Positions 8,701 through 62,341 of a DNA stretch of 64,000 nt are shown here, in pieces. Under the pieces are notes generated by a model that was not told the origin of the DNA, made no database searches, and saw nothing but the letters and a program-made list of their open reading frames with translations. Source of the DNA: Chrysomallon squamiferum (Eukaryota; Animalia; Mollusca). The stretch lies in contig CM022670.1 of assembly GCA_012295275.1 (NCBI GenBank), positions 19,344,001-19,408,000 of the forward strand, read 5' to 3'. The position numbers were made by a program, and so were the translations under genes. The stretch's first letter is position 1. The number at the start of each line of letters is the position of its first letter.

Positions 8701-11700
8701 ATATTTGCATCATTGAAATAAAGGTCAGTTTAGTCATTTACATATTAATATGAAAAATGAAGTCTTCATCTTGTGATAAATATGCAACTTTAAAGACTTG
8801 ATGTTAAATTAATATATCTACCTATAGTTATATGTTACTAAAATTGACTAATTCTTTTTACAGATTATCACCAAAGGCAAACAGAAAAGATAGAGGTCGT
8901 CAGTTAAGGTCTAAACGTGAAAGGGCATCTTCACCATCTCTCAGAGACACAGCCTTTGTTTCCAGACAACAATCTGCTTCAGCCTCTGTTATTCTTGACC
9001 AGCCACGAGAACCAGTAAAGGAGGCCCTTTCTCCTTCAGTAGCTGAATGTCTTAGAGCTGTTTTTGCAGCCTTTATGTGGCATGAAGGAATTGTACATGA
9101 TGCTATGGCTTGTGCCTCTTTCCTCAAATTTCATCCAGACTTGACAAAAGAAATGTCCAAATTTGTCAAAAATAAGGATCATGAAAAAGTTAGAATGAGA
9201 CATGCAACAGAATCAAGTAAAGGTTCTTCAAGGGATAAAAGAAAAGAGAATATGAATGAAAGTAGAGTTCGATTTAATCTTGAGCCACAAGTAAAGGATC
9301 TTGACATTGGTGAAAGGTCAGCAGCACAATCTAGACCTCCTATAGCTCGCCACAAGTCTGAAGGGAATGAAAAATGGACTCCAGAATTCTGTCAGAAGTT
9401 GAAGGATGATGCTGAAGTAGCTAAGGAGACTCAGCTGCCTCCAACTCTTCAGCATTTGGTTTATTTCTGGGAAGAACTGTCAACCTCAGTTATAAGAGTA
9501 ATAGACCAAGAGTTAATTCTTCCAAGTCCAGCTGTTGCAGCAAAGGTGAAGAAAGTGGAAAAGAAAGACAAAGAAAAGGATAAAGAAAAGAAATTCAAGA
9601 AAAGAAAAGATCAGAAATCTATGGCCAAAGGACATATGTTTGCTGAAGCTGTGGCAGGTATGTTTGGAGGAGCTGTAATTGGAGTTGGAGGAGGTGAAAG
9701 GGAAGCCATATGTGAACTGTGTGGTGGATCCTTTCCACATCCTGTGACATACCATATGCGCAGTGTCCATCCAGGATGTGGAAAACATGCCTGTGGTAAA
9801 GGTTACAACAGTGGAGGTAACTTTTGTGGAGGTTGGGCTGGCAACTGTGGTGAGGGAGGCATAGGAGGGAGCAGTTGGTATTTAATGTGTGATGTATGCA
9901 GAGACAAATACCTGAAAGAGAAACGCCAGTCTGAAAAACTCAAGGACAAAGTGAAGAAGTTGAAGAAAAGAAGTATTCTGTCAAAACAGCAGACTATGAT
10001 GTCACCACTGGAACCACATGTCATACTTAAAAACAATGCCATGTTTCTGCTGGATATGGCCAGTGCTTCTGGTTTCACTTTGCCAAAACATCACAAGAGA
10101 CATATTCTAATGAGATCAGACATTGGACTTCCCAGTGTCAGTGAAAATGCTGGCTCTGATATGGAATCTTTCCCACCAGTACCATTCCAATACCTGATTC
10201 AGCATAATGCTCAGAATGCAGATTCTGCTTTTGCTGAGGACATTTTCATAGATGATGATGATCGTGTGTTTGTAAGGTCAGGGTCAATGTCGATGGCTCA
10301 AAGACGGGTTATATATCGACCCCGCCTTCCGACTGAGCCTAGACACAGTCCTTTGGCACGGTCAGGATCTCTTGGGCAAGATGTCAGATCATTTTCACAG
10401 TTCTCATCAACAGGATCTCAGGTAAATAAAATTATATTTGTTTGTTTGGCATGTATTTGCGTTATTTTTTAATCATTATTTTGGTTTTGTAGATTTTCTG
10501 TTTATAGCATAATAGACAAAGAAAAAGTCAAATAAATACAGTGATTATAAAAATTAAGCTTACAAAAGTTATGAATAATTTCAGTTTTGTAAATAATTAT
10601 TGTTAATATAATTTTATTGCAGTGATAGTTTTTTCTTTCATGATAGTGGAATGAATTGACAATGGTATAGTTACTAACTAAAAATTACTGATTAATTTTT
10701 TGTAACAAGTAATTATAAAATACAATTTATTTTAATTTATTTGTTTCTGATTTGCATGAATACATAATTTTTCTTGATAAACAAATAAGCTTCACAGTTG
10801 TTTTATTGTTATAGGAACATAGTATTATTGTTGTGCCTGAAAGCAGAGTTGTGACAAAAAGTGCAGGCACAAGTCCTGAGTTTGAACAGGAGCAGTTCAA
10901 GAAGACTATATTCCAGCGCAGTGTGTCAGAAATTACTTCAGAAGAAGAGAACAGTCAGAGTACTGCAAACAGATCTCTGTCCAGACGAAGAAACAACAGT
11001 GGTGGAGTGTCAGGTGAGTGAAGAATGTCTGGCATACAGGAAAATTGTTTTACTTGTGGTAGTTTTAACAATTAGTAACCTAAAGACATTATGGTATACA
11101 TTAAAATCAGTGTTTCATAATAATAAAGAACAACATTAAAATAAAAAGACCTTCTGGAAGCTGCCGTATTATCTTCTTTCTCTTATATTCATGACATATT
11201 CACAGAATTTTAAAAAGTCTCAGTATACCGACATCTAAATAATAATGATTTATCATGGTGAATAAATCAGTTTTTTCAGTTTATCATTTCTGTATACATT
11301 GTTGTCATATGTGATTATGTAAGAATGGATGGATATTGATAGCATCAGTATAACTGTGCAATATATTAATGATTACAACATACAAAATTGTTTCCTAATC
11401 TAAAATAATAATTTTAGATGGGGGAATGTCACTTCTCAAACACCCATCGGCAGCCATGACAAAGTTGATCTCATCTGTTGATCGACATTCAGAAAATGGA
11501 GAGCGCGCACTACAACGGCCTGTTATGGAATTTATAATTCAGCGTCATGATTTGGATAATCTTCAGCTGGCAATGAGACAAGCATTGAGAAAAGCGGCTT
11601 GTCGGGTCTTTGCTATGCAGGTTTGTAGAAATATTTAAAATACGAATGAAATATTGCATAATATTTAAATAAGAATAAATATCAGCTTTTTGCAACTCTT

Positions 11701-29628: not shown

Positions 29629-30035
29629 TTATGACAGTGAAGCAAGTTCCTTCTTGATCTCTGCTATCATTTCTGTTCTAGGAACCTCTCTCTGTAAATT
29701 ATAGAAAGATTTTTTTTCAGTTATCTACACAAGAACTGTAATTAGTTTTAAAACCTTTTTCTAACATTCAACTTAATTAAAAGAAGGGAAGACAATAAAA
29801 AATAAACATCAAAAAAATTCTTATGTACCTAAATCTAACAAACAAAACAAATCTGCTTCATTAAAATATTTTTAAACTCAATAAATTATATTTCTTCAAA
29901 GAACAGTTATCTTCAAAAAAAATAAAAATAAAAAAATTAATATATATATATAATTTTATTAAGTTAATAATTTTTTTTCAAAATTGTATACAAATTGGAA
30001 ATTTCAATTCTTTTATCTTCTTTCCAATCCCTGAC

Positions 30036-30072
<37 letters not shown>

Positions 30073-32320
30073 ATCTTACCTCTTCTCTAGTTGCTATTTT
30101 TCTCAGTTTAACTTTGTTTCCTTGGATTTCTGACTGGCCAATAACAACAGCTATAGGAATTCCATTGGTTTCACAGTACTGGAACTGATCCAAAGCCTTT
30201 GGGTTCTTTTTATATGACTGTTCTGTCTGTTGGAAAATAAAATAAACAACTTTGAAATTTATTAAGGGAAAATTGTTGAGAGAAAGAGAAAAAAAGGTTT
30301 TAATTTTCTCCTATGGTCTCTAACTGCTATTATAATTGCTGCATAAAAATGTAATGGATAGCTGCAATTAATTTATTTTTATGTTTGAATGCTCTGGTTC
30401 ATGAAAGAATGCCATATATAATTTCATGTTGTAGGTAATGTATTTGAACTTCCTGTGCAAAACTCATTGCTTAGGCATGGAGACAATAGTAAAAAAATAA
30501 ATACTAATAATAATTTAAAAATTTAAGAACCAAATTTTTTCTTCTTCTCTTTTTTTTAAAATCAATTTAACAATGTGGAGATCGTAACTCAGTGTGTAGA
30601 TAAAGGTATTCGAAAATAACTGGCTTATTGAAAAGGTGTATGGTAATATGGCTAACTTATAAACAATATTTTTGCATTCTCTGAAATTTAATACTTCTGT
30701 GTTTGGTATACATATCTGACAATTACTGCTAATTTTTAAAATAGAACTTTCACAGACACACACACACACACATACACATATAAAAATAATAAAATAATAT
30801 TTCAGGTAATTATTTTGTTAAGAAATCTAGCATATACTAACAAGGAATTACCAGGTTTGGTTAATAGTCATCACCCACAAAACTAAATAGATAACACACA
30901 TATTTCATCTCTTATGGTAATAAATTAATCTATAATTTCACACACACTCACACACACACACAAAATTTACTTTAATGTTGGCATCCCACAGTTCTTTACA
31001 GAGTTTTAATCTTTCTTCAACCAAATTCTTCTGAGCAGACAAAACATAAACCTCAGTCTCAGTTGTCCTTGTCTTTTCATTGGCAGCCTTAAATAATAAT
31101 TAAATCAACAAATGTCTGCACATTCTACAAAATCTTTCTTTAGAAGTGTACTGTGAAAGATGAATGAAGAAAATATTTTATGCATTTGGTACAGTTTATG
31201 ATTACATAGCATCATTAAAAATAAACAGGAAAAATAATGATCTTATATGATAAGCCATATTTTTTGTTTTTAAATTATATGCTCTATCCCAAAGAAAGGC
31301 AAGTACTATGGCTTTTGATAAATCAAACTGAACATAAAAAGAAATGTTTTTAAGATAGTAATATATATGGTAAAAAAACCAGATCTGATATCTTTTTTTA
31401 TAGTTTGTAGTTCCTGAATATACAACATTAGCTTTACAATGTAAAACAATTTATGATGAAAAAAAGATGAAAAGACATAGATTTTTTTTTACATGTAAAA
31501 TTAACATCAAATTGTGTTTATAAAATTTAAAAGAAAAATTCCACAATAAGTACCATTTAGAAACTGTTAAACAAACAACTTTATGAAAGGTCAAACTATT
31601 GGTAAAATTTATATCAATTATTCTTGAAATAAAACAACAAATTTATCACTGAATCCTGTCCAGTAACAAACATCTTTTGTCAACAAAACAAACTGAAATA
31701 AACTTACAGCTGCTCTGGCCTCCATAATTGCAAAAAGTCTTTCAATACCAATGCTGACACCGACACATGGCACCATCTTTCCTTTAGGGTCAAACATTCC
31801 AACCAGACCATCGTATCTTCCTCCACCAGCAACACTCCCCACACCCACTGCCTCCTCTTCATTTTCTCCACTGCCTGGTTTGTGACTGTAACCAGTAAGG
31901 ATTCCTTCATAGATCACACCTGTGTAGTAGTCCAAACCTCGGGCAAGACTCAGATCAAAGGTTACCTGTTATTGTAATTTAATACAAAGAATAAGAAATA
32001 AGTTGATACATAGTGATATATATATTAAGTGATATCTACAGAGTGTGAAAATCATGTTGATTTCAACTGACAATTTATAAATGTCTGAAAAAAAAAAAAG
32101 AGTTAAAATTACTTTATTTTTAATTTCACTTTATTTTATTACTTTCTGTTGTAATAAATTGTTATTTTTGTTCATTTAATGGTCTGAAAGATAGCAAATA
32201 ACATGTTTATTAATCAGAATGTATTGGCAACTTTTATTTTCTTGTTAATGTAATACAATTCATTTGAATTCCTTTGCAGTCAATGTCTCTGTCATATGTG
32301 ATACTTTACAACACACACAC

Positions 32321-32351
<31 letters not shown>

Positions 32352-35300
32352 AAGTCTTCAGTTACATTATGTCAGTGTAAGGGAAGAAACAAAACACTGA
32401 AACATAGAAACTACTTCATCTTCTTCAAAATGTAACTGATAAAAGATAATAAATCTGCAAGGACTTACTTTGTCAATGATTCCATAGAGTTCACAGTACT
32501 GCAGCAGCACCCCGAGTTCCTCCAAACCTTTCACAGCCGATTTCTGTTTGCTGAGATCCTCATCCTTTAGTAGTGTGTTGATCAAGTCAATACCACCTGA
32601 AATAAAACAATTACTTTGTGTCAGAGTGTTTAAGTGAAAGAATATGAATAATTAACTGATTTTGATAATAACTCATATTTGTTTTTGTTTATATAATGAA
32701 ATAAAAACTTCTGCTTACATTCAGAGGAGGATTGACACTGTAACTTGTGTATTTAGTCTTGTCTACTGAATTTGTTGTGTTATTATAATCATTTAAAAAC
32801 AAAAAACCTATTATAAAATTAGAACTGATATGTATGTAAAGGAGAGAAGGAGGGTATATATACATGTACATGTTAGGTTGAAAAATAATTTACAAAAGAT
32901 AAATACACACCTCTGTTTTGTACATATTCTCCAATTTTATCAGCAGCTGCAGGATCCAGCCCCTTTTCACCAATCATTTCTGCACGCACTTCATTCCACA
33001 GTGTCTAAGATGAAAATGAAACATGCTGACTACATGGTCTGAATATGTAAACTTTGTTTATAACAATTCTATAAAACAACTAACATTTTCTGCTTTCTTG
33101 TTGCTTTTGTTTAATCAAACTTTTAACACATTTTTATGTCTTTTTAGTAGAAAATATATAAAACTATTTAATATAAATGGCTGGAAAAGAAAACACACTG
33201 TCTGACTCTATAAGCTACTTTGATCTTCAAACAGCAAAGGTCTTTTTAAAACCTATCCCTAGTGTGGTGTTATAATAATTAAATGTGGAATGTAGTCATA
33301 TTGATAAAAACAAATTTAATGGTCCTGCAGTTTCTTGTGTATCACTGAATGCTTTAAACTGTGAACTAAAGTCTCATCTTACTGTCAGAAAGGGTCAGTT
33401 GAAGCACAATTGCTTATAAAGTAACTTTAATGTTATTTTTTGTTGAATATGTAATATTGTTTTAGTTAATAAGGAAATGTCTTTAAATTCCTTTAGTTTC
33501 GTAAGAGTTAACTGCAATAGGACAAATATATATGCTAATACATTACTGTGAACAATATAACAAATACTGTAACTAAAATACACCCAGTGTACATCCAATT
33601 AAAACTTTTCCTTCTCCTACCTTATCCAGTTTGTCAACAGAAGAACAAATTGTTCTGAACTTGTCATCAGGCACACCACATGCAGCAAACATTCCATCTA
33701 ATAACTGTCTGTGATTCACCTGAAATTAATAAAGTAAAACTGGAAACAAGAGACAAACAACTGTTGTTGCAGGTGAAATATGTAGTTAATTTATGAAAAA
33801 ACTGCATCACATTTTAGCACACTTGTTATTGGCAGTTTCCCATCATCTCAGTATGATCTGGTTCAGAAATAATCTTGAAACATCGTAACTGCTGGTCTTT
33901 TGAATACATTTCTCCCAATGCCACCCAGAATATCATTGCAGGTAGGAAATACTGATGCCACTGCATCTTAAAGATAATATTGATTTATTTTTATGTTTGA
34001 ATGCTTGAATTTAAAATGGTTCAGGAAAGCATTTATCTAATTTCATGCTGTAGGTAATGTATTTGAACTTCTTTTGCAAAACACACTGTGTAGATATGGA
34101 AACAGCCATATTAGTACTTTTAAGTATTTACCTTTATGACAAATTCTCCAAGTTCCAGAGACTGCAAAATTTCCACAACTATTTTGATGCATTCTACATC
34201 AGGTAACATCACATCATATTGACCTGCAATATCAAAGTCCTGAAAAAAGAAAGAAAAAAACAACAAAAATATAACATAATTAGATATTAATTCAATTTCA
34301 GTTTTTATTAATATCTGACATTAAAGTAAATTTGGAAAATGTGCAAATAAGAAAAATATATATATTAAATTTCAATGAAACTTTATAGTTTATTGCATTG
34401 ACATGAAATATAAATTGTATACATGTCAGTTTTTTGAAATTTGAAAACTACATTTTAATGTGCAAATTTTATTTACAATATATTAAGTTTAACCATATTA
34501 AATTAAATATTAATATTTTTTTTTATTTTTTTTATCTTTACATTTTCCCACTAATACGTATTAATGTATTAATTACTTTCCCAAAATATTAAAAGAGCAA
34601 GTGGGTTCAAATGGTAATTAAGTATATTTTTGTCACATTTTTCAAAAATGAGAAAAACAGAATATTCCTATTGTTCTCAAGAGCTCTAACAGATGCAATA
34701 TAATGACAACACAATACTGGTAAAAGCTCAAAGTTTAAGACAAGTAATAAAAATTAAACCTACACACTGGTAAAATTCTCTAAATCGTCCTCTAGTCATT
34801 GCAGGGTTATCTCGCCTGTAGACTTTGGCTATATGATATCTTTTGATATTGGATATTTTGTTCATTGCTAAATAGCGGGCAAATGGTACCTGTATACAAT
34901 TAAGGAAACCTTTTCCAAAAAATTATACTTAGAAATAAAGTAATGAAGACTGACAATTCGTGATCTGTCATTTTAACAAAGATATACAGATTCTATCTGA
35001 TAAAACAGGAAATATTGATTTACATATTAAATATTAAATCTGAATATAGTACATTCCATTTTATTTTATTTATATACAAATGCTGATTGATTAATTTACA
35101 ACCATCAGAAAATTTAGATGTGTAATCTGTAAGTCTTCATAAGAAAACCACTACTAAGTGTATTTGCAACAACAGAATTTTCATGTGAACCTTTCCATGA
35201 ACAGGAAACATACTATGAACTTTGGTAATCATGTCTCATACTAGCATTCTAACCCAAAGCTGAAAACCATATCAAAGCAAGTTTAGTAAGACATTTTATT

Positions 35301-38300
35301 ATCTTTAGATTTTAATGAACTGGGACATATTTATTGGACTGGCTAAAATATGTGTTCTGATAAATAGGGATTTCCCATAAAAAATATCTGATATAATGCT
35401 CAGCTTTTTCTTTGAAAAAAAAAAAATATATATTATTGTTATTACTCCAGATTTTATGACAATAAAGAATAAAGAAGGATACAGTAAGATCATATCGGAG
35501 TGACAGAAGTTCTCCACCCTGATCTGCAAGGTCATATATTAGTTTGGAATCTTCACCATACTTCCCAGTGAGTGTATCCTGAAATTAAGCACAAACAAAA
35601 TATTTGAAAATTATCTAACACCAAGTAATGTCAATTTAATGACTGAATATTTCAAATGTGGTATATGTCATTAAAAATTATTTATTATTTTTTCATTGGA
35701 GGTCAAGTAAAACCATCTAAGACTACATAAATACTAAATAGGACAACTGACCTTCTTGACCCACCACATCTCAGGCAACACTCAACAGATATTAACAAAT
35801 GAATATGAAAACAAACCTTGAGTTCAAACACTGGTGTATCAATTGTTTCAGCACCATGGCGTTTGAAACATTGAGTAATTTTGTTGAAAACTCCTTCTCT
35901 AATTGCCATTTGTTGGGGTGTGAAGTCCCTTGTACCCTAAAACATAAAAATGTAAAAAATAATAAATATAATTTCATTTATTACATTTAAAAATAAAAGG
36001 AATGGTAGCAGAAACAAAATGCTTGGTTTTACAAACAAATAAATAACATAAGCTTGCCATTCTATCAAAAGGAATTGAAATTTATAAAGCTTCTGCTTAT
36101 ATAGAATGTAAACCTTCACTAATACTGACAGATAAATGGTCTTCCTTAATACATTTACTTCTAAACATTTTTATCTAATAGGTTAAATCCACCCATTCAG
36201 TTTTTCTTTACATCAGAATGTCTGGAAAACTGGATACTGTTAATCCTATTCATGAAATTTATGACACTTTTCATAAAAAAATTAAATTTGAAGGCAATTG
36301 ATAACTAATCAAAGATAATACTTTTATATATTTATTCTGCAGATTAAAGCTTTATTGCTTATGTAAATTAATGTAATAAAAACGAATAAATTTAACATTG
36401 TTAAACACTCCCTGATTAAAGAAAAAGGTAGTATTATTTGGACTGGGAAATAAAAATTATAAATGTAAAATAATAATAATAATAATGATGACAGTGCTAA
36501 AAAATTCATTAACAACATACTGATTTGTGTTGAAGATCTGAAATCACAGGAATATGACAGTTGCAATAATATTGATGAAAAAAAGAATATAAAACAATGG
36601 ATTTACCTTAGGGGTTTTAAGCACAAACTTCTGTGTTCCTTCATCACTGATTTGAGCTTTTAATTGCAACAACTTGGCTATTTCTTCATCAATCTGTTGG
36701 TAAGAAATACATTTTTAATTACAGCTTTCTTGACAACTGGAATCGTAGGATATAACTGAAAGTGTTAAACAAGTTAATAAATCTACAAATTATTATTAAC
36801 AAATATTAATAAATTTAGGAAGCATATTAGGATCTCCAAATGTACATTTTGATAATATTAACAAAGCTTTTGTAAATACAAATGTATTAAGTATAATAAT
36901 AATAATAAAATAATATTAATCATCTAATAATTAAAAAATACCCAAAACAAAAACAAAATTTGACAAACCAAACCAAAACCAGCATATTACTAGTTATAAT
37001 TCAGTGTATGGATTTATAATTTTTTTCTTTAATATATACCTTCTGTTTGGTCTTTTTGGAATCTGGATCATACAAATGTATGCTTTTGTGAATTCCACCA
37101 TCACACTCTTCCATTTTTTAGCAAGAAAACAATACTGACCATTTGTTTGTTTTTTAACTTCTTACACACATTATCTTTTTTTACTTCTGTACACACATTA
37201 TCTTTGTTCCAAATAGATAACATTTCTGAGAAATTTAACATATGTTTTAAAGTAATGGAAATATTTTATGTTTAAAAGGCATAAATTATTGCAGATATGT
37301 TGTTTAAGATTCATTGTCTGAATTGACAATGGGATAATATTATTGTAAGTAAATGCACCATGCATGTAAATATTTGTTACTTGTTTATATTTGTTTTATA
37401 TAAAAGAATAGGTTGGGCTTTTTAAAGGATTGGTTATGGGAAAAGTAACATCTAACTTTGTTGTTGTCTAATTTATGTAGGAGTGATATCAATTTGATTT
37501 GTATGCTATTAATAGGCATTCATATGTTTTAGTTACTCAGGAATATTCCTTACTGAAGAGCAAGGATTTAATTTGTGAGTATTTCACTGAGAATCATAAC
37601 AATTACTGATTATTACTGAGCAGTCTCTGGATGTGACTGACCACCTGAAATCCTGACTTAAAATTTGAGGTCTGGAATTTAATATTAAATTTTTGTCAAT
37701 AAATTTTACAGTGCCCTAATAAACATTTTTATCTAAATTCTGTCTGGATCTTTGAAAAACAAAATGTTTATTTTTATTTTATATATTACAGACTATTAAG
37801 ATTAGAGATATAACTTAATAATAATAATAATAATCCTGTTTTATATAGCTTTCACTGATAAAAAGGTATTGTTTTTTTTTCTCTTGCAAAATATTTTATT
37901 TTGTATAACGAAAAATGAACATGGCTAAAAATATTACCGGAAATTTTGTAAAAATGCTCATAATAATAATAAAAATATATTAAAAGTGAGAAATAACATT
38001 AAGTCTCTTTTACTTTCTTCTTTCACAAAATTATTAACAACAAAAACAACATATTTATCACATTTTTCTCTCACCTGTTTGTTAGCCATATAGCGCACCA
38101 GTAGTTTAGATTGTTGAAGCAAGGTCCGGTGGACATGACACAATGAAATTCCAGGAAACATGTTGACCACAGGATGACAGCAAATTCACATAGACACACA
38201 CAGAGTTGAAGATGATAAGAAATATGGAAAGGAGAGAAGAAAGTCCTTATCAGCAAATCTGGTAAATAAACAAAGTTAAAACAAGAAAAGCGTACCTCCT

Positions 38301-39874
38301 GAAAAAGAATGATTGATTAGTAGGCTTGAAAAGAAACAGGCACAGAACACAAAGTTGTTGTCAAAGATACACTACTTTACTTATATTATAAGAATTAAAA
38401 CTGAATTTCTTATTAAATCCATTTTTCTAATTATGTTAATTTTACAAAGCGATAAATCATTAAGAAAGAAATTAACTTCTAAATGTTTGGCTTTATCATC
38501 CTTTCTGTTTAGACCAATCATAATTGTGTAAATACTATATTAACAGAAATATTGTAACATAATTATGAAAAACGTATATTCAAATTTAAAATGTTTTTGA
38601 GATCATTGCATTCCTATAAAGATATAAACTGTGCTATTTAAAGATGAGACAGGAAAAAGACCAAAAAAAAACAAAACAAATTAAATTAAAATAAAATAAA
38701 GAAAAAAAAAAAGAAAGAAAGAAAAAAAGAATTAAAATACTTGTAAGAATAATTTTTTTTAGACTTACTTCATTATCGCCTATCTTAAAAATAACTTTGT
38801 TTTTTTATATTAAAAATTCACTAAAATAAAAGAAAAAAGAAATTAAACAATTTGTAGGACTTAATCCATGGATTCAGAGATTTTAAAGATTTGTAAACAT
38901 TGTGAAAAGTGTGAAGTATTTTTGTGAACAAACAGTTTTGAAAGCAGATAAACTTTAAGTTAATGGGATTCTTCGTTAATACTTTATCAGAATTTGTACT
39001 GATCATTTTTTGTCATGTTTTCTTTTCTGAAACTAGGACATTTAGAAATTTTGGCATTATTTAAGTTTGTGACATACTAGAAAATAAAATTTTAAATACA
39101 CTCAATAAACAAACTAAAAAAAATCTGTGGATACCAAATAAGGTGAATATAACTGAATACTGTCTAAAATTAACATGACACATGCATATATCATTATATG
39201 ACACTGTGACAGTCAGTGTGAGTACTGTTTCTGTTACTGTTTCTCAAATCACCGTATGATGTGTCAAACGTTAATGTATATTTTTAATCTTTCATTGCAT
39301 TGCATCATTCTAAATCAAAATTCAGTCAATCATATTATTACTGGTATTATATCCACCGAACCCCCCTAAAAAATGTTTTTTGATTATTTTTTATAAATTT
39401 AAAAAAACAAAATTTTTAATTATAAACTTTTTTTTACACACTAAATGTTAAGTGGTTATATACATTTTACAGAAAACAGAAGCAAACAATTCTTCAACAT
39501 TTCAAGCCATCAAAAGAATCCCTCTTTATATCAGTGATAACCAGGGGTGTGCGGGAGAAAATATTTCCTTAATACACCACCTGTATGATCAATCTTTAAA
39601 TAACCTATAATTATGCTCTGCTTTCGAGCAATATTTCGATTTAAAACACCCGCATTTTAGATCAAATCTTTCCAAGACGGACAACGTGGGTGCACATGTA
39701 ACATGCAGATGGAAGCATGTTGACTACTAAAAAAGAAACAAAATTTAAAGATCATTTCGGGTATCGAGTACTGATACTAACCTTAATTTTATCAGCTTTT
39801 TCAGCCTTTAATTTTCTGACAATCTCGCCTTGAACTTTTATTTCCTCTTTAAGGTTTCGCTTTTCGACATCCAT
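29629..39874 (-). CDS. HARS: Histidyl-tRNA synthetase (class II), cytosolic-type isoform, 13 coding exons, 511 aa
   Basis: Exons 39874-39782, 36693-36607, 35936-35817, 35578-35483, 34889-34764, 34239-34132, 33719-33621, 33004-32911, 32596-32469, 31965-31708, 31087-30971, 30226-30080, 29691-29629 (TAA) join in frame. WHEP start ([28 protein letters not shown]), [72 protein letters not shown]. Confidence 0.97.
30371..30485 (-). ncRNA. Intronic duplicated element copy A, putative H/ACA snoRNA
   Basis: Shares two exact 23-nt blocks with 33983-34104; on - strand a hairpin, a possible H-box, and an ACA near the 3' end. Confidence 0.35.
33983..34104 (-). ncRNA. Intronic duplicated element copy B, putative H/ACA snoRNA
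   Basis: - strand: hairpin (agtgtgttttg/caaatacatt), AGATAA H-box, hairpin (aatgct..tgaa/ttca..agcatt), caaACAtaa. Confidence 0.4.
34890..35482 (-). other. U12-type (minor spliceosome) GT-AG intron in HARS
   Basis: Donor ACT|GTATCCTTC; branch site TTCCTTAAT about 10 nt before the acceptor (ggtttccttaattgtatacag|GTA); no polypyrimidine tract. Confidence 0.9.
37040..37114 (-). CDS. Possible third HARS first exon ([25 protein letters not shown])
   Basis: AAAAATGG start context, 25 stop-free codons, phase-0 donor AAG|gtatat. Confidence 0.4.
38075..38161 (-). CDS. HARS: Alternative HARS first coding exon encoding a putative mitochondrial presequence ([29 protein letters not shown])
   Basis: ATG at 38161; phase-0 donor CAG|gtgaga at 38075/38074 matches the phase-0 acceptor at 36693; no acidic residues, R/K/L/S-rich; upstream acceptor tttatttaccag| at 38259. 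Confidence 0.75.
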
Positions 39875-41202
39875 GATCTCTCTTCGTGGGAAGATTCTAA
39901 ATTCGACATAGAATCATACTTGGCATTGGATTCAAAAATTAATTAAATGCACAACTCGGTTAATCATAAATACAATATATTATGATATAATTAAAATATT
40001 ATTAATAATAAATCAACAACAATAAAAAAATTAAAAAAAAAAAAAAAAAGAAGAAGAAAAAAGATAAAAGCAATAAAAACAGATTTAAAAAATTAAATGA
40101 ATAACAAAACAAATGGAGATAATTTTTATTATGCTTACCTATCTCTTCGTACCGAAATAACACCCTTAATTTTACTTCTGATACCTAAGATGTTTTTCGA
40201 ATTATTACGATGGATTTATTTATGAAATGCCTTTAGATAATAAACTTAAGAAGCAATTACTTTCCTCTTATTAGAGACGCTACACATGCGCAATTTCACC
40301 TATGTTTATTAGCCGACACTCGTAATCGAAATTCTTATCTGAACTTGAAAAAAAAAAAAAAAAAAAAAAGGAAAAAGCATGAGTAATATATAGTAATCAT
40401 GAGAAGTTACATAATAAAGTGAAAACAGTGATAATCAAATGCTGGAAATGCTATTCATATTAAGTTATTTATTTATTACCTACTGACAAAATAAATAAAT
40501 AAGTAAATAAATATATAAAATAAACCAAACCAAACCAAACTCATTGAAACATATAAATGTAATTTTGATTTGTTCAAAAGATGTACGTGCCACTTTCTTT
40601 TTGTCTTATCCCAGTGCAAATAATTTTCTATCTAATTTTGCCAACCATCGCTGTTTCTGGCCCTTCTAAGCGAAGGCAACGACGATTAAAAAAACAACAA
40701 ATAAACCTACGACAACCCCCCCACACAAAATAACAGATAAGAACCCCACACAACAAACATTAATCCCTGACAATAACTACCGATATGTTGTTCTTGACAA
40801 TTATTACTGAAAGGCATGTTTATTTATTCACTTATTTATTTATTTTAGCTGTTCAGATACATTTGTTATTTTGAACGGCAGTAACAAATCCGAATTCGCA
40901 ATATTCTTATTTACATTTTTACATTATCGGAAACGTAAAAAGAAAGTGGGATTAATTTTATTTCCTGCAGTGTTTTCTTGCGTAGTAAATTTGTGGTATT
41001 TACTTAACATGTCTCGTAGACGGAAATTTTAAAAAGTGTTTCGTTTCCCAGGATATACTTATCATTAATTCTTATCAATACAAGCTTGTAGTTGAGTTTA
41101 TTATAATTTTTAAAATAATTTAAATATTATTTCAAATATAATGTGACATTGGAAACCAATAATAAAAACATCATTTATTTTATTAATAAAATTAAAAAGG
41201 GT
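39875..41202. promoter_or_regulatory. Putative bidirectional promoter between HARS and the BUD23-like gene
   Basis: 1328 bp between divergent ATGs; CpG visibly more frequent than in the flanking gene bodies; partial NRF1-like TACACATGCGCA at 40281-40292. Confidence 0.55.
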
Positions 41203-42030
41203 ATGGCAGTATCTACAAGACGACATATATTTTTATGCTTAAAGATATGTACTGATCTCAAAAAGAGACATCTTTCTAGTTTTAAACACAAACCAGCTAT
41301 ATACTACTTTCCAAACACCTCTCCCGCGATACATGACCACGATAAGGTGAAACACTTACTAAATGAGAGATCTCATCTGGTTGAATTAAAAAGCGTTACG
41401 GAATTTGGTATACGGAATTTAAAGGGTAGGAAAGCCAGGCGCCCAGAGTTATCAGATCTGTTGGCTGGAAGACAATCAAAAGAAGCAGACAAATACTTCA
41501 AAGGAGGTCGTATGTACAAGATACAATCGGAATTGGCAGAGAACGCTTTGGATCTGTTACGTTTAGTATGTGATGTACATCCAGGATATATCTTAGACTT
41601 AGGATGTGGCAATGGCATAAGTACAAAAGTTATTGCTGAAAGAGGTCATATTCCTGTCAGTATAGATATCAATCCTGCTATGCTTAAATGCATGGCTGAA
41701 CAAAATGACACACCTGATGATGCAATACTAGGAAATGTCAGCATGGGTCTTCCTTTTCGTAGTGGAGTGTTTGACGCAGCTGTTAGCATCTCTTTCTTGC
41801 AGTGGCTAATTGTTGATGAAAGGAATGAGATTTTGAGGATATTTTTTAATTCCTTAAAATTTTGTTTAGCTGATAAAGGTTCAGCAGTGTTTCAGTTTTA
41901 TCCGAGAACTCTGGCTGATGTAGAGAGAACAATTGAAACTGCATCATTGTTTTTCAGAGGGTTTATTATAGGTGATCATCCTCATGAAAATAGAGGAAAA
42001 AAACTGTTTATGATCCTTTTCTCTTTATGA
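41203..42030 (+). CDS. Intronless BUD23/WBSCR22-like class I SAM-dependent methyltransferase (divergent paralog, 275 aa) with N-terminal extension
   Basis: Motifs collinear with BUD23: RRPE, EADKY, RMYKIQ, ALDLL, ILDLGCGNG, IDINPAML, GLPFRSGVFDAAVSISFLQWL, FFNSL, AVFQFYP, KKLFMILFS. First ATG 41203 (GGTATGG), TGA 42028-42030, AATAAA at 42041. Confidence 0.88.
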   Translation: MAVSTRRHIFLCLKICTDLKKRHLSSFKHKPAIYYFPNTSPAIHDHDKVKHLLNERSHLVELKSVTEFGIRNLKGRKARRPELSDLLAGRQSKEADKYFKGGRMYKIQSELAENALDLLRLVCDVHPGYILDLGCGNGISTKVIAERGHIPVSIDINPAMLKCMAEQNDTPDDAILGNVSMGLPFRSGVFDAAVSISFLQWLIVDERNEILRIFFNSLKFCLADKGSAVFQFYPRTLADVERTIETASLFFRGFIIGDHPHENRGKKLFMILFSL

Positions 42031-42546
42031 TGGAAAACTAAATAAAATTATTTTAAATAGCAAAGCTTCTGTTGTTAAAAATATAATAAAAATAATAATT
42101 ACAAAAATTTAAATTATTATTGTAAAATAATGCTATGATAAAATATTTTATTAATGTTATTATTTTCAAAAAACCAACAATAAAAAATCAACTCCCCACA
42201 AAAAACCCAAACAAGCAAGCAACAAAACAAAACAAAAATCAAATTTTTCAGTTTAACATAATTGTTTTAGATATTTTGCCAGCATGTTGTTATTTTAAAC
42301 TGATGCTTTCATTTTATTACTAAATATGTTTTTAAATGTTCTGAAATATATTTTACTAATATATACAAGAAAAAAGATCCTGTTACTGCAGTATTTATAC
42401 TAAATTATCCATGTGAATTAAATTAAATTACTTTTATAAATGGTATTTATTAACCAATTATCAGTTGCCTTCAGTCTGAAATGTAAGTAATTTTTTGTGA
42501 AGAAAGATGTGTTATTCTTATATATTGTTGAAACTGAAGGTTTTAA

Positions 42547-45816: not shown

Positions 45817-47860
45817 TTTTTGCTTTAAAGTATCTGGGTTAAATTAACACGACTCTGAAAACAAACACTTCAAAGGGAATTAAAGAAATGGCAAAACGCA
45901 GTGCAAAACCTCCTCTTTGCGAGAGATGGACTTGAAATAGAGACGTTGAAGAGATAAGGACTAAGATTTTGTTCGATTCACTTAGCGATAAGCCTAACTA
46001 CCTTTTATCACTCTCTAAAACAAAGATGTACCTCTCCGATTTCGTAGGCGAATTTATAAACCATATGTTTAGCAGGTGCCAGACATTTTTTCTTCTGTTT
46101 TTTATTTCATTTATTTCATATCAACCTTCCCGACAGGCTTTGCTAGTTGAATTTAGGATTGTTCCAACCAGTTTGTGTACAACTCTGATTTGCGATAGGA
46201 AAGAGAGCCCTTGCTTTGGCCAGTCTGTGCTTATGTACACATATTTATAATATATCGTCATTATCTACATCGGAGGTCTTATGATGGACAAATAGCACGC
46301 CCGAGATTCACGAATGCTCTCCAGTTTCTTTTGATATGCTAGCCGGGAAGTAATGACGCGAGAAATTGAATTAAACATTATTCGGGTTGCCAGAGGAGTC
46401 ACAATGGAAACAAATATTTGAGGAGTTTTGAAAAACAAAATATTTTGATCCAATTAATAAGTGAAAAACGCTTCAGAATTAAAACAGTACATACAAGAAG
46501 CCATTCGTGTCTGTGAACTTTAAGGTTAGTACATATTTAAAAACTTAAATAAATTAGCATTAATCTTAACTAATTTTTTTTTTTTTTTTTTTTTTGGTAT
46601 CATTTTTTAAAGATATATCACTGTGTCATGGTTTTTTCTTTATGTTAGTTTTATTTGCAAACTGTTAATCTATCTAACTATCTAACTAACTGACGTCATA
46701 ATTTCATACTTTGTTTTCCAGAACGTAAACATTTTTTTGTTACGGATTTGTCATTCTCGGAATATGTCATCTGTATCTCTGTTAACTCTGTATGTCTGAT
46801 AAGGAAATCCCTGTTTCCATTACTCTCATTTGTACGTCTCTTTTTTGGAATAATCCTTATCTGTCTTTGTCTGCCTGTCTGCTGGCATGTCTGTCTGTCT
46901 GTCTGTCTGTCTACAAATCTATCCCTCTGGGTATCTGTCTGTCTTTCAATCTCTTTGTCTGTCTGTTTCTTTCTAAGTAATAATTATCAAATAAACACAT
47001 TAATTAAATCTTAATAGAATGTACTTTTTATACTTTTTAAAGTCAGCTGGTTTGGTACAGCCGTTTATTTTCTCCCGACTTGGGAAAGTGTAATTTGGAA
47101 CATTCCACGGAAAACATACTGAAGATAGGAACTGCCACGTTAAATTTTTATTGTCGTTTTAACGATGCAATTGAGGAAAACGGAAGGATTGTTTATAAAA
47201 AGATTTTTTTTTTTAGTTTAATTATTTTTATTATGAGGTTTCTGGGATAACCAACAGATATTTACTCTTTTAGAGCATGAGGACTCATATTTAAGTTCAC
47301 CATGCAGAATCTGCGTGCCGTAAATTATAGCTCCCAAATGTCCTTATTTCTCTGATTTTAGTATTTCCATTGAAATAATTATACAGTTTATTTTAAATGC
47401 CGATCGATAATTCGAGGCGTGATTTTTTTTTTTTTTTTTTTAATTCAATCAACAAATGCCTTTTTGTATGGTTCAGTAACGTGGATATGGTTTCTAAATT
47501 TTTCTTCTTCTTCTTCTTCTTCTTCTTCTTATTATTATTTATATACATTGTTCAGTTCATATTAATTTCGCTAATTCATTTGCTAAAACTTTATAACATT
47601 TAATACGGCTAGTATGTGAAATAGGGTTAATGCATACTACACTTAAAGTTTGTGCGGTAATCTGCGTGCATATGAACTTTGTCTTCACAGATTATTGTAG
47701 AAACATTGTAACTTTGAATACAAGTATGACAGATAGCGTTAATGCTTACTGAACTGAAGAAACTCCAAATATCCTTTGCATTCATATAAGCAATAACCGC
47801 AAAAAAAAAGAGAAAAAATAATCAATAATTAATCTATCTCTCTATCTATCTGTGGGTGTG

Positions 47861-60765: not shown

Positions 60766-62341
60766 ATGTGGAAGACAAACATGGCGGCGATTGTTGGAGT
60801 TTGGATCATTGGTCAAGGAATGATGGGCACAGTTGGGGGTTTTAATAACGAAACATGCGACGATATTACTATCGTCTCCAATGTTACGTTAGGGTAAGAA
60901 TGTGTTTTATAGAATATTTCTGGTGTTAATTAAGATAAAAATAATACATGCCATCGCTGAGCTAAGGGTAAATTACAACAGACCATATGTAGCACGTTCA
61001 AAGTGACTTTAAAATATGACAGTAAATGTGACTGTTACGATAAAATAATACAGTATTTAAAAAAAAAAAAGAAAGAAGAAAAATCGCATTATATTACAAA
61101 AATATTGCCGATATTTCACGTTACAGTTTAATGATATAACACACAAAACACTGTTGTAATGAATTTATTATATAATTTTATAGGCATTTTCGAGGTATCT
61201 TTCTGGTAAAACTGCATATTATGTAGAATGTATGAAATTTCCAGTTTTACATAACACTGAAACAGAGTATTACATACATTACCGAGGATACTTTACAGAA
61301 AAACCGAAAATCTTACAATATCGCTGACACTTTCAAGGTTACGTTAGAGTAAGACAGTAAAACTGATAACGTTACGATAAACATGTATACTCTATAACCT
61401 TTGCAACGTTACCAAGGATACATTAAAGTAAGGCCTCGTATTATATAATATTTCGTTAGAATCAGAGATTCAGTGTAATAACCTTGAGATAAACGAGAAC
61501 ACGGTTGATTAATACTGGTGACTTTTTCACGATATCGTTATCGTAACATTGTTGAATTTTCAAGGTCACACTATATTAAATAATGTTTTATATAATATTG
61601 CCGAAAATTTATACTTTAATAAAAAAAATTGGTGTAACGTTTATACATTTGTATACCAGTCTTTTCAAGTTTTACAGTAAAACAGTATAAAAGTATACAT
61701 CTGTTTTATAATATTTAGACTGACAAGTACATTACAGATTCTTATGTTTTTTATATACCTAATCGATTGTGTTATATATTGCGTTTGTATGTGTTCGTTT
61801 GCTTGTTTACCTGTACGATACAAACATGATACATATAAACAGAAACACATTTGTATTTAGTTGTGTGTGCATATGTGTTTGTATGAGAATATTATTAATA
61901 AAACGTCATTAATTTGTATTACAATATTTATCCATTTATTTAGTAAAGTAAGTCACGAAGTGGAGAAGTATGAAGCGGCTTTGGTGATTCTACTCGGATT
62001 TGGCGGGTTCTCAATTCTTTTGGGAATGCTTTACAACCTAATACGGAAGTACGTCTTCGAAGACTCGCACAATCTTGACACGACGTTTGACGCCGGCGGC
62101 AAAGTCAGCATGAGTTTAACTGCTGTGACAGTCGCTTCTCAATTACTGTGGCCTGGTGACTTACTGCAAAGTGCCACCGTGGCCATAAAGGTGATTTCAA
62201 TGAAAATTATAAGATTATAAGGCCATTAAAAGAAAGAAAGAATAGAAAGAAAAAATATATTTACCTAATTTAATGTGCTAATCTCTCTCTCTCTGTGTAC
62301 AAAAAAGAAAGAAAACAGCACAAAAACAACAAAACAAAACA

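Follow-up and report, generated by a model that had tools for sequence, protein, structure and literature searches.

A 64,000-nt window of the Chrysomallon squamiferum genome was found to encode, at nt 41203..42030 (+), a 275-aa BUD23-like protein (P0001). It belongs to a genuine and old family of BUD23 variants, apparently undescribed, that lack the C-terminal tail and have an N-terminal extension. Mitochondrial import of this protein appears likely from the sequence of its leader. The explanation that we consider best, offered tentatively and at slightly under even chances, is that P0001 would be a guanine-N7 methyltransferase of the small mitochondrial ribosomal subunit and also a factor in its assembly.

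The coding sequence was a single ORF under the standard code, with the ATG context GGGT-ATG-G, and was intron-free, as an RNA-library contig crossed it without a joint; it was also the sole match when canonical BUD23 was searched by tblastn within the 64-kb window. A sequence-only reading had described a divergent, tail-less BUD23-like protein with the BUD23 motifs in order, about 78 extra residues ahead of RRPE, and a first stretch of 30 aa with eight R/K, one acidic residue and R-H-L-S-S. All of this was borne out: RRPE began at residue 79, hence 78 residues lay upstream, residues 1-30 contained 8 R/K and 1 D together with R22-H-L-S-S, and the family had a conserved extension and long branches in the tree. 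The BUD23-type class I SAM methyltransferase domain, assigned from sequence and structure matches and from conservation, comprised residues 79-275 (nt 41437..42027, +) and carried RPE, Q108, DLGCGNG, D155, D191, SISFLQW, QFYP, DHP and K267. The best sequence matches among solved structures were human BUD23 (E 2.6e-32) and yeast Bud23 (E 1.3e-28) (residues 91-274), and the top Foldseek matches were all BUD23. The AlphaFold model, with a mean pLDDT of 84.3, gave a Z of 24.9 and an rmsd of 1.9 over 184 residues with yeast Bud23, whereas other methyltransferases gave a Z of 18.5 or less.

Twelve positions (E82, Q108, D132, G134, G136, D155, S195, W201, Q231, Y233, P260 and K267) did not vary in 31/31 family members and varied little or not at all in 33 canonical BUD23 proteins, the pocket assignments for P0001 resting on this conservation. 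D155 aligned with human BUD23 D82, a residue whose change abolishes catalysis according to the available part of PMC4472018. D191 corresponded to human D117, described in the accessible text of PMC4516353 as a contact at the BUD23-TRMT112 interface; it was retained in P0001 and in 27/31 members and replaced in the other four. On the other hand, the columns R114, P207 and R210, invariant in canonical BUD23, were lost in the family, which counts against the explanation given above, and with several such positions lost the substrate of the family may differ. The kept core and the lost canonical surface residues would fit an active enzyme docking on a different particle.

The proposed loss of the basic C-terminal tail was upheld. 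The WBS tail (PF12589) was detected neither in P0001 nor in any of the 25 aligned family members, and a canonical BUD23 used as positive control scored E 1.2e-18. By structure match, residues 78-275 of P0001 were equivalent to residues 6-207 of human BUD23, i.e., the tail-less domain, and the protein terminated with KKLFMILFSL*, so that the abrupt end noted earlier was nearly right, one further residue (L) preceding the stop. The loop after QWL, previously thought to lack CNA(D/N)KK altogether, was shortened, not absent, with about 5 residues fewer than that of human BUD23. Human BUD23 1-207 is reported to be cytoplasmic and unable to rescue a yeast bud23 deletion (PMC4516353, available part), and the tail to contact h18 of 18S rRNA (PMC9723619, available part); P0001 would therefore be unlikely to perform the canonical nuclear job.

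A phmmer search against 1.84 billion representatives yielded 1390 matches, and the family was picked from the best 150 of these; tail-less N-extended members were chosen by pattern, two were selected by eye, 8 more came from a C-terminal profile, and the members without a species name were assigned to lineages by similarity. The same architecture was present in at least 15 named species, of which one was an annelid and the other 14 were molluscs from three classes, namely Gigantopelta, two Haliotis, Patella, Littorina, Babylonia, Physella, Aplysia, Plakobranchus, Elysia, Argonauta, three Mytilus and the annelid Owenia. P0001 is thus not a recent retrocopy. Regarding the retro-duplicated paralog originally proposed, the intron-free CDS was consistent with it, but the occurrence in three mollusc classes and an annelid means that any duplication was ancient; from these sequences, the family would have originated at least as early as the mollusc-annelid split, an age at which marks of retroposition such as target-site duplications are unlikely to have survived. 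Literature searches, mainly of open-access papers, gave no description of the family, in agreement with the earlier remark that no mitochondrial BUD23 family was known to be described, and a term search of the metazoan METTL survey PMC8662637 gave no mention of BUD23 or WBSCR22.

Three of 61 matches to a full-length profile were family members (P0002, P0003 and P0152), the ESM Atlas gave archaeal and eukaryotic BUD23-like clusters for whole P0001 and only scores below 0.9 for residues 26-110, and five metagenome loci matched residues 127-196 only (32-34% identity) and were not used. In a 66-row tree, 33 tail-bearing or canonical-like rows formed a branch excluding the family (96/98), and 21 of the 23 family rows grouped together at only 86/74, with long branches. 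An origin of the family from animal BUD23, imposed on the tree as a constraint grouping the two, was not rejected (AU p 0.16), again with long branches. P0152, P0100 and P0037 were missed by the held-out extension profile, and P0100 and P0037 also fell outside the 21-member branch; these three are doubtful members. Canonical tail-bearing BUD23, which molluscs presumably also possess, constituted one well-supported clade over animals, fungi and others. This clade, as well as the failure of the tail-less human domain to do the nuclear job in yeast (PMC4516353, available part), makes it extremely improbable that P0001 is the sole BUD23 of the organism, a fast-evolving orthologue minus its tail, even though the searches gave no canonical BUD23 of this organism or of any named mollusc among the matches listed.

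Two parts could be distinguished in the extension of the family. The first was a basic leader, variable and about 25-65 aa long, that was unalignable among members; downstream of it lay a conserved segment corresponding to residues 31-78 of P0001 (IYYFPNT ... FGIRNLKG; nt 41293..41436, +). This segment was homologous across lineages, since leave-one-lineage-out HMMs, built without the RPE motif and with columns from one joint alignment, scored 28 of 31 held-out members higher than any of 190 non-family proteins (at most 5.7 bits), two of these passes being marginal and P0152, P0100 and P0037 failing. It also lay outside the region covered by the BUD23 structure matches, and it is likely part of the mature protein. 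In P0001 the leader comprised residues 1-24 (nt 41203..41274, +) with R22-H-L before S25-S26, and is predicted to be a mitochondrial presequence with its cleavage site on the grounds of sequence, AlphaFold secondary structure (helix at residues 5-29) and family statistics. The suggestion that the protein had gained a presequence holds in that a presequence-like leader recurred across the family; this appearance, however, is limited to roughly the first 26 residues of the 78-residue extension.

Composition of the leaders was evaluated by simple residue counts, not by a trained targeting predictor. Leaders of 27/31 members, four rows with late starts and no leader (P0002, P0009, P0087 and P0042) being left out, contained 147 R/K and 24 D/E in 903 residues (16.3% and 2.7%), versus 9.2% and 4.7% in 244 control ORF starts from the same window. 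Within the first 30 aa, a net charge of +4 or more combined with no more than one D/E was observed in 11 of 19 members versus 9.4% of controls. In the first leader test (19 of 25 members versus controls), R/K were enriched (p 1e-7), but there was no depletion of D/E (p 0.33) and only a weak difference in hydrophobic moment (p 0.034), the latter two results counting against import. A junction motif, [RK]x[FLYIM][SAC], was present in 16 of 27 leaders (7/12 lineages) versus a mean of 3.1 and a maximum of 11 in 2000 shuffles, a figure to be read with the facts that the motif was defined and widened after the sequences had been seen and that the members are related. With R only, it was present in 8 of 27 (5/12 lineages; shuffled mean 1.4), again more than in any of the 2000 shuffles, and all 6 heterobranch matches used K, not R. 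P0001 itself has a motif of the R-3 type, a putative cleavage motif, at the end of its leader.

We interpret a leader that is variable and basic and closes with a cleavage-like motif as probably a matrix presequence. The extension might instead be an RNA-binding or nuclear-localisation segment of a nuclear or cytosolic P0001 acting on the pre-40S particle or another cytosolic RNA, which we regard as unlikely. The K/R clusters KKRH, KRFKK and RKARRPE, the null result of the D/E test and the basic character of the segment beyond the leader (18.6% R/K) agree with such a role, as do the annotated proteins of three Mytilus species, which begin after the leader and count against import. P0002 is probably mis-started, as its sister P0003 has a full leader, but the late start common to the three Mytilus species may be real. 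A nuclear or cytosolic role is less easily reconciled with a leader that varies in length and sequence and whose end, marked by a cleavage-like motif, keeps a fixed distance to the conserved segment, or with the loss of the canonical surface residues and of the h18-binding tail.

Under the preferred explanation, P0001 would be imported into mitochondria and its leader cleaved near R22-H-L|S-S, as the composition of the leader and the position of the motif suggest. Once imported, the protein would use SAM to methylate a guanine at N7 on the small mitoribosomal subunit and, in addition, would be an assembly factor for this subunit. More weakly, the target may be the 12S guanine equivalent to yeast G1575, a position that we take to correspond to E. 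coli G1338. We know of no m7G in mapped mammalian mitochondrial rRNA, which counts against this explanation. With a similar reserve, docking on the subunit could have passed from the lost tail to segment 31-78, and TRMT112, which enters the human mitochondrial matrix according to the available part of PMC13539109, could be the partner. A fairly improbable variant is that P0001 is mitochondrial with another substrate (tRNA, mRNA, another purine or a protein) or is mainly an assembly factor. The long branches and altered surface point that way, and so do the available parts of two reports, in which canonical BUD23 is required for assembly independently of its catalysis (PMC4472018) and TRMT112 serves a tRNA methylase in mitochondria (PMC13539109). 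The active-site motifs shared with canonical BUD23 are nevertheless invariant, which would favour a flipped guanine as substrate.

In its widest form the mitochondrial explanation is doubtful, albeit possible: molluscs, annelids and perhaps more animals would have a BUD23 devoted to mitochondria, which would introduce m7G at the P-site ridge of 12S rRNA and use a new N-terminal module instead of the nuclear tail. If the family is mitochondrial, an unmapped m7G is predicted in the mitochondrial RNA of a large group of animals, and an enzyme of the cytosolic ribosome pathway that has archaeal relatives would have been redeployed onto a bacterial-type mitoribosome.

The gene sequence was present in four RNA runs of one study, and contigs from three of them were examined. 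One contig of 1265 nt covered nt 40955..42155 (+, strand inferred from the ORF) and included a 5′ leader of about 250 nt with two short out-of-frame ATGs (nt 41009 and 41141) and a 3′ UTR with AATAAA at nt 42041 and 42085, soon after which it ended. Partial contigs from two other runs lay almost wholly inside the CDS; in run X5, 0.97 of the words were present, yet none of the listed contigs crossed the gene. Since these contigs are metatranscriptomic and can include DNA, transcription is likely rather than proven.

Compared with the window, the allele of run X1 carried 6 non-synonymous and 2 synonymous differences (8 coding sites in all) and one in-frame codon insertion; its pN/pS of 0.87 was above the expectation for strong constraint, in a small sample of eight sites. 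The chance of at least 6 non-synonymous sites in 8 was 0.055 at omega 0.2 and 0.005 at omega 0.1. In addition, P0001 had S153, also found in run X3, where 28/31 members have G; the change S153G restores the family consensus, and the alignment gives no such support for N137S. The allelic differences and S153 would agree with a real family of which the copy P0001 is decaying or relaxed, like a young or dying retrocopy. This is very improbable, because the window ORF was intact, the listed allele differences brought no stop or frameshift into the CDS, the sequence was found in three RNA libraries, and eight allelic sites are few. Moreover, the Gigantopelta protein, the closest relative of P0001 among the matches listed (58% identity), had the shortest tree path to it, with a terminal branch of 0.28 for P0001.

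Upstream of the BUD23-like gene and head-to-head with it, nt 29981..39874 (-) contained the gene for histidyl-tRNA synthetase, split into several exons including a WHEP exon and identified from sequence and the Pfam domains PF13393, PF03129 and PF00458. The ATG of the WHEP exon at nt 39874 was 1329 bases from the BUD23-like ATG, and the two genes are inferred to share a promoter region. A donor lying upstream, near nt 40138, could be joined in frame to the WHEP exon and would then add a basic stretch, with no ATG ahead of it. Elsewhere in the window, a 554-aa open frame at nt 8808-10472 (+), P0233, had only a weak glycine-rich Pfam match and presumably represents a large exon of a MYCBP2/Highwire-like gene; nt 61861-62217 (+), without a Pfam match, resembles what we take to be a DUR3-type urea transporter exon; and short frames at nt 45843-46420 (+), also without a Pfam match, resembled exons of an additional gene.

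In databases, the family occurs as "uncharacterized", as "bud23-like" or under wrong names. The Aplysia member P0015 (XP_012934673.1) was labelled "7SK snRNA methylphosphate capping enzyme", apparently a misannotation, and, together with several close relatives, had long insertions within the methyltransferase domain. Six tail-less eukaryotic proteins with long C-terminal parts (P0046, P0111, P0149, P0098, P0139 and P0153) formed a branch outside canonical BUD23 (98/87) and are possibly a further paralog family. Archaeal-type BUD23 look-alikes were represented by P0007, P0212 and P0068 and by Atlas clusters, the latter mostly from Promethearchaeota and also from Nanobdellota and Bathyarchaeota; P0007 and P0212 retained RPE, SxSxxQW and QFYP, and P0068 had two such domains. 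These archaeal clusters stand against the available parts of PMC5372719 and PMC6144793, in which a Bud23 homologue is reported to be absent in archaea.

Among known systems, the family is closest in fold to BUD23/WBSCR22, the enzyme for 18S m7G1575/m7G1639 (PDB 4qtu, 6g4w and 7wtt), with which P0001 shared 35-37% identity; the SAM and active-site motifs are kept and the D117 equivalent mostly so. Unlike this enzyme, the family has no PF12589 tail, has a shorter post-QWL loop and in the tree occupied long branches outside the canonical clade, and it adds the variable basic leader and the conserved 48-aa segment. Among archaea and other eukaryotes, tail-less BUD23-like proteins (P0007, P0212, P0046, P0111, P0149 and the Atlas clusters) similarly have no WBS tail and a short post-QW loop, and six eukaryotic ones have H at position 261 as in the family, but they are without the 31-78 segment. 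For the mitochondrial role proposed, the available part of PMC13539109 provides the nearest parallel: TRMT11-TRMT112 in human mitochondria is a TRMT112-type methyltransferase in the matrix, so the cofactor can be there, although TRMT11 is a single dual-targeted protein whose signal is cryptic and whose product is m2G on tRNA, rather than a separate paralog bearing a long leader. Further mitochondrial partners of TRMT112 are left open in that part of the report, and the P0001 family, if mitochondrial, would be among the candidates for them.
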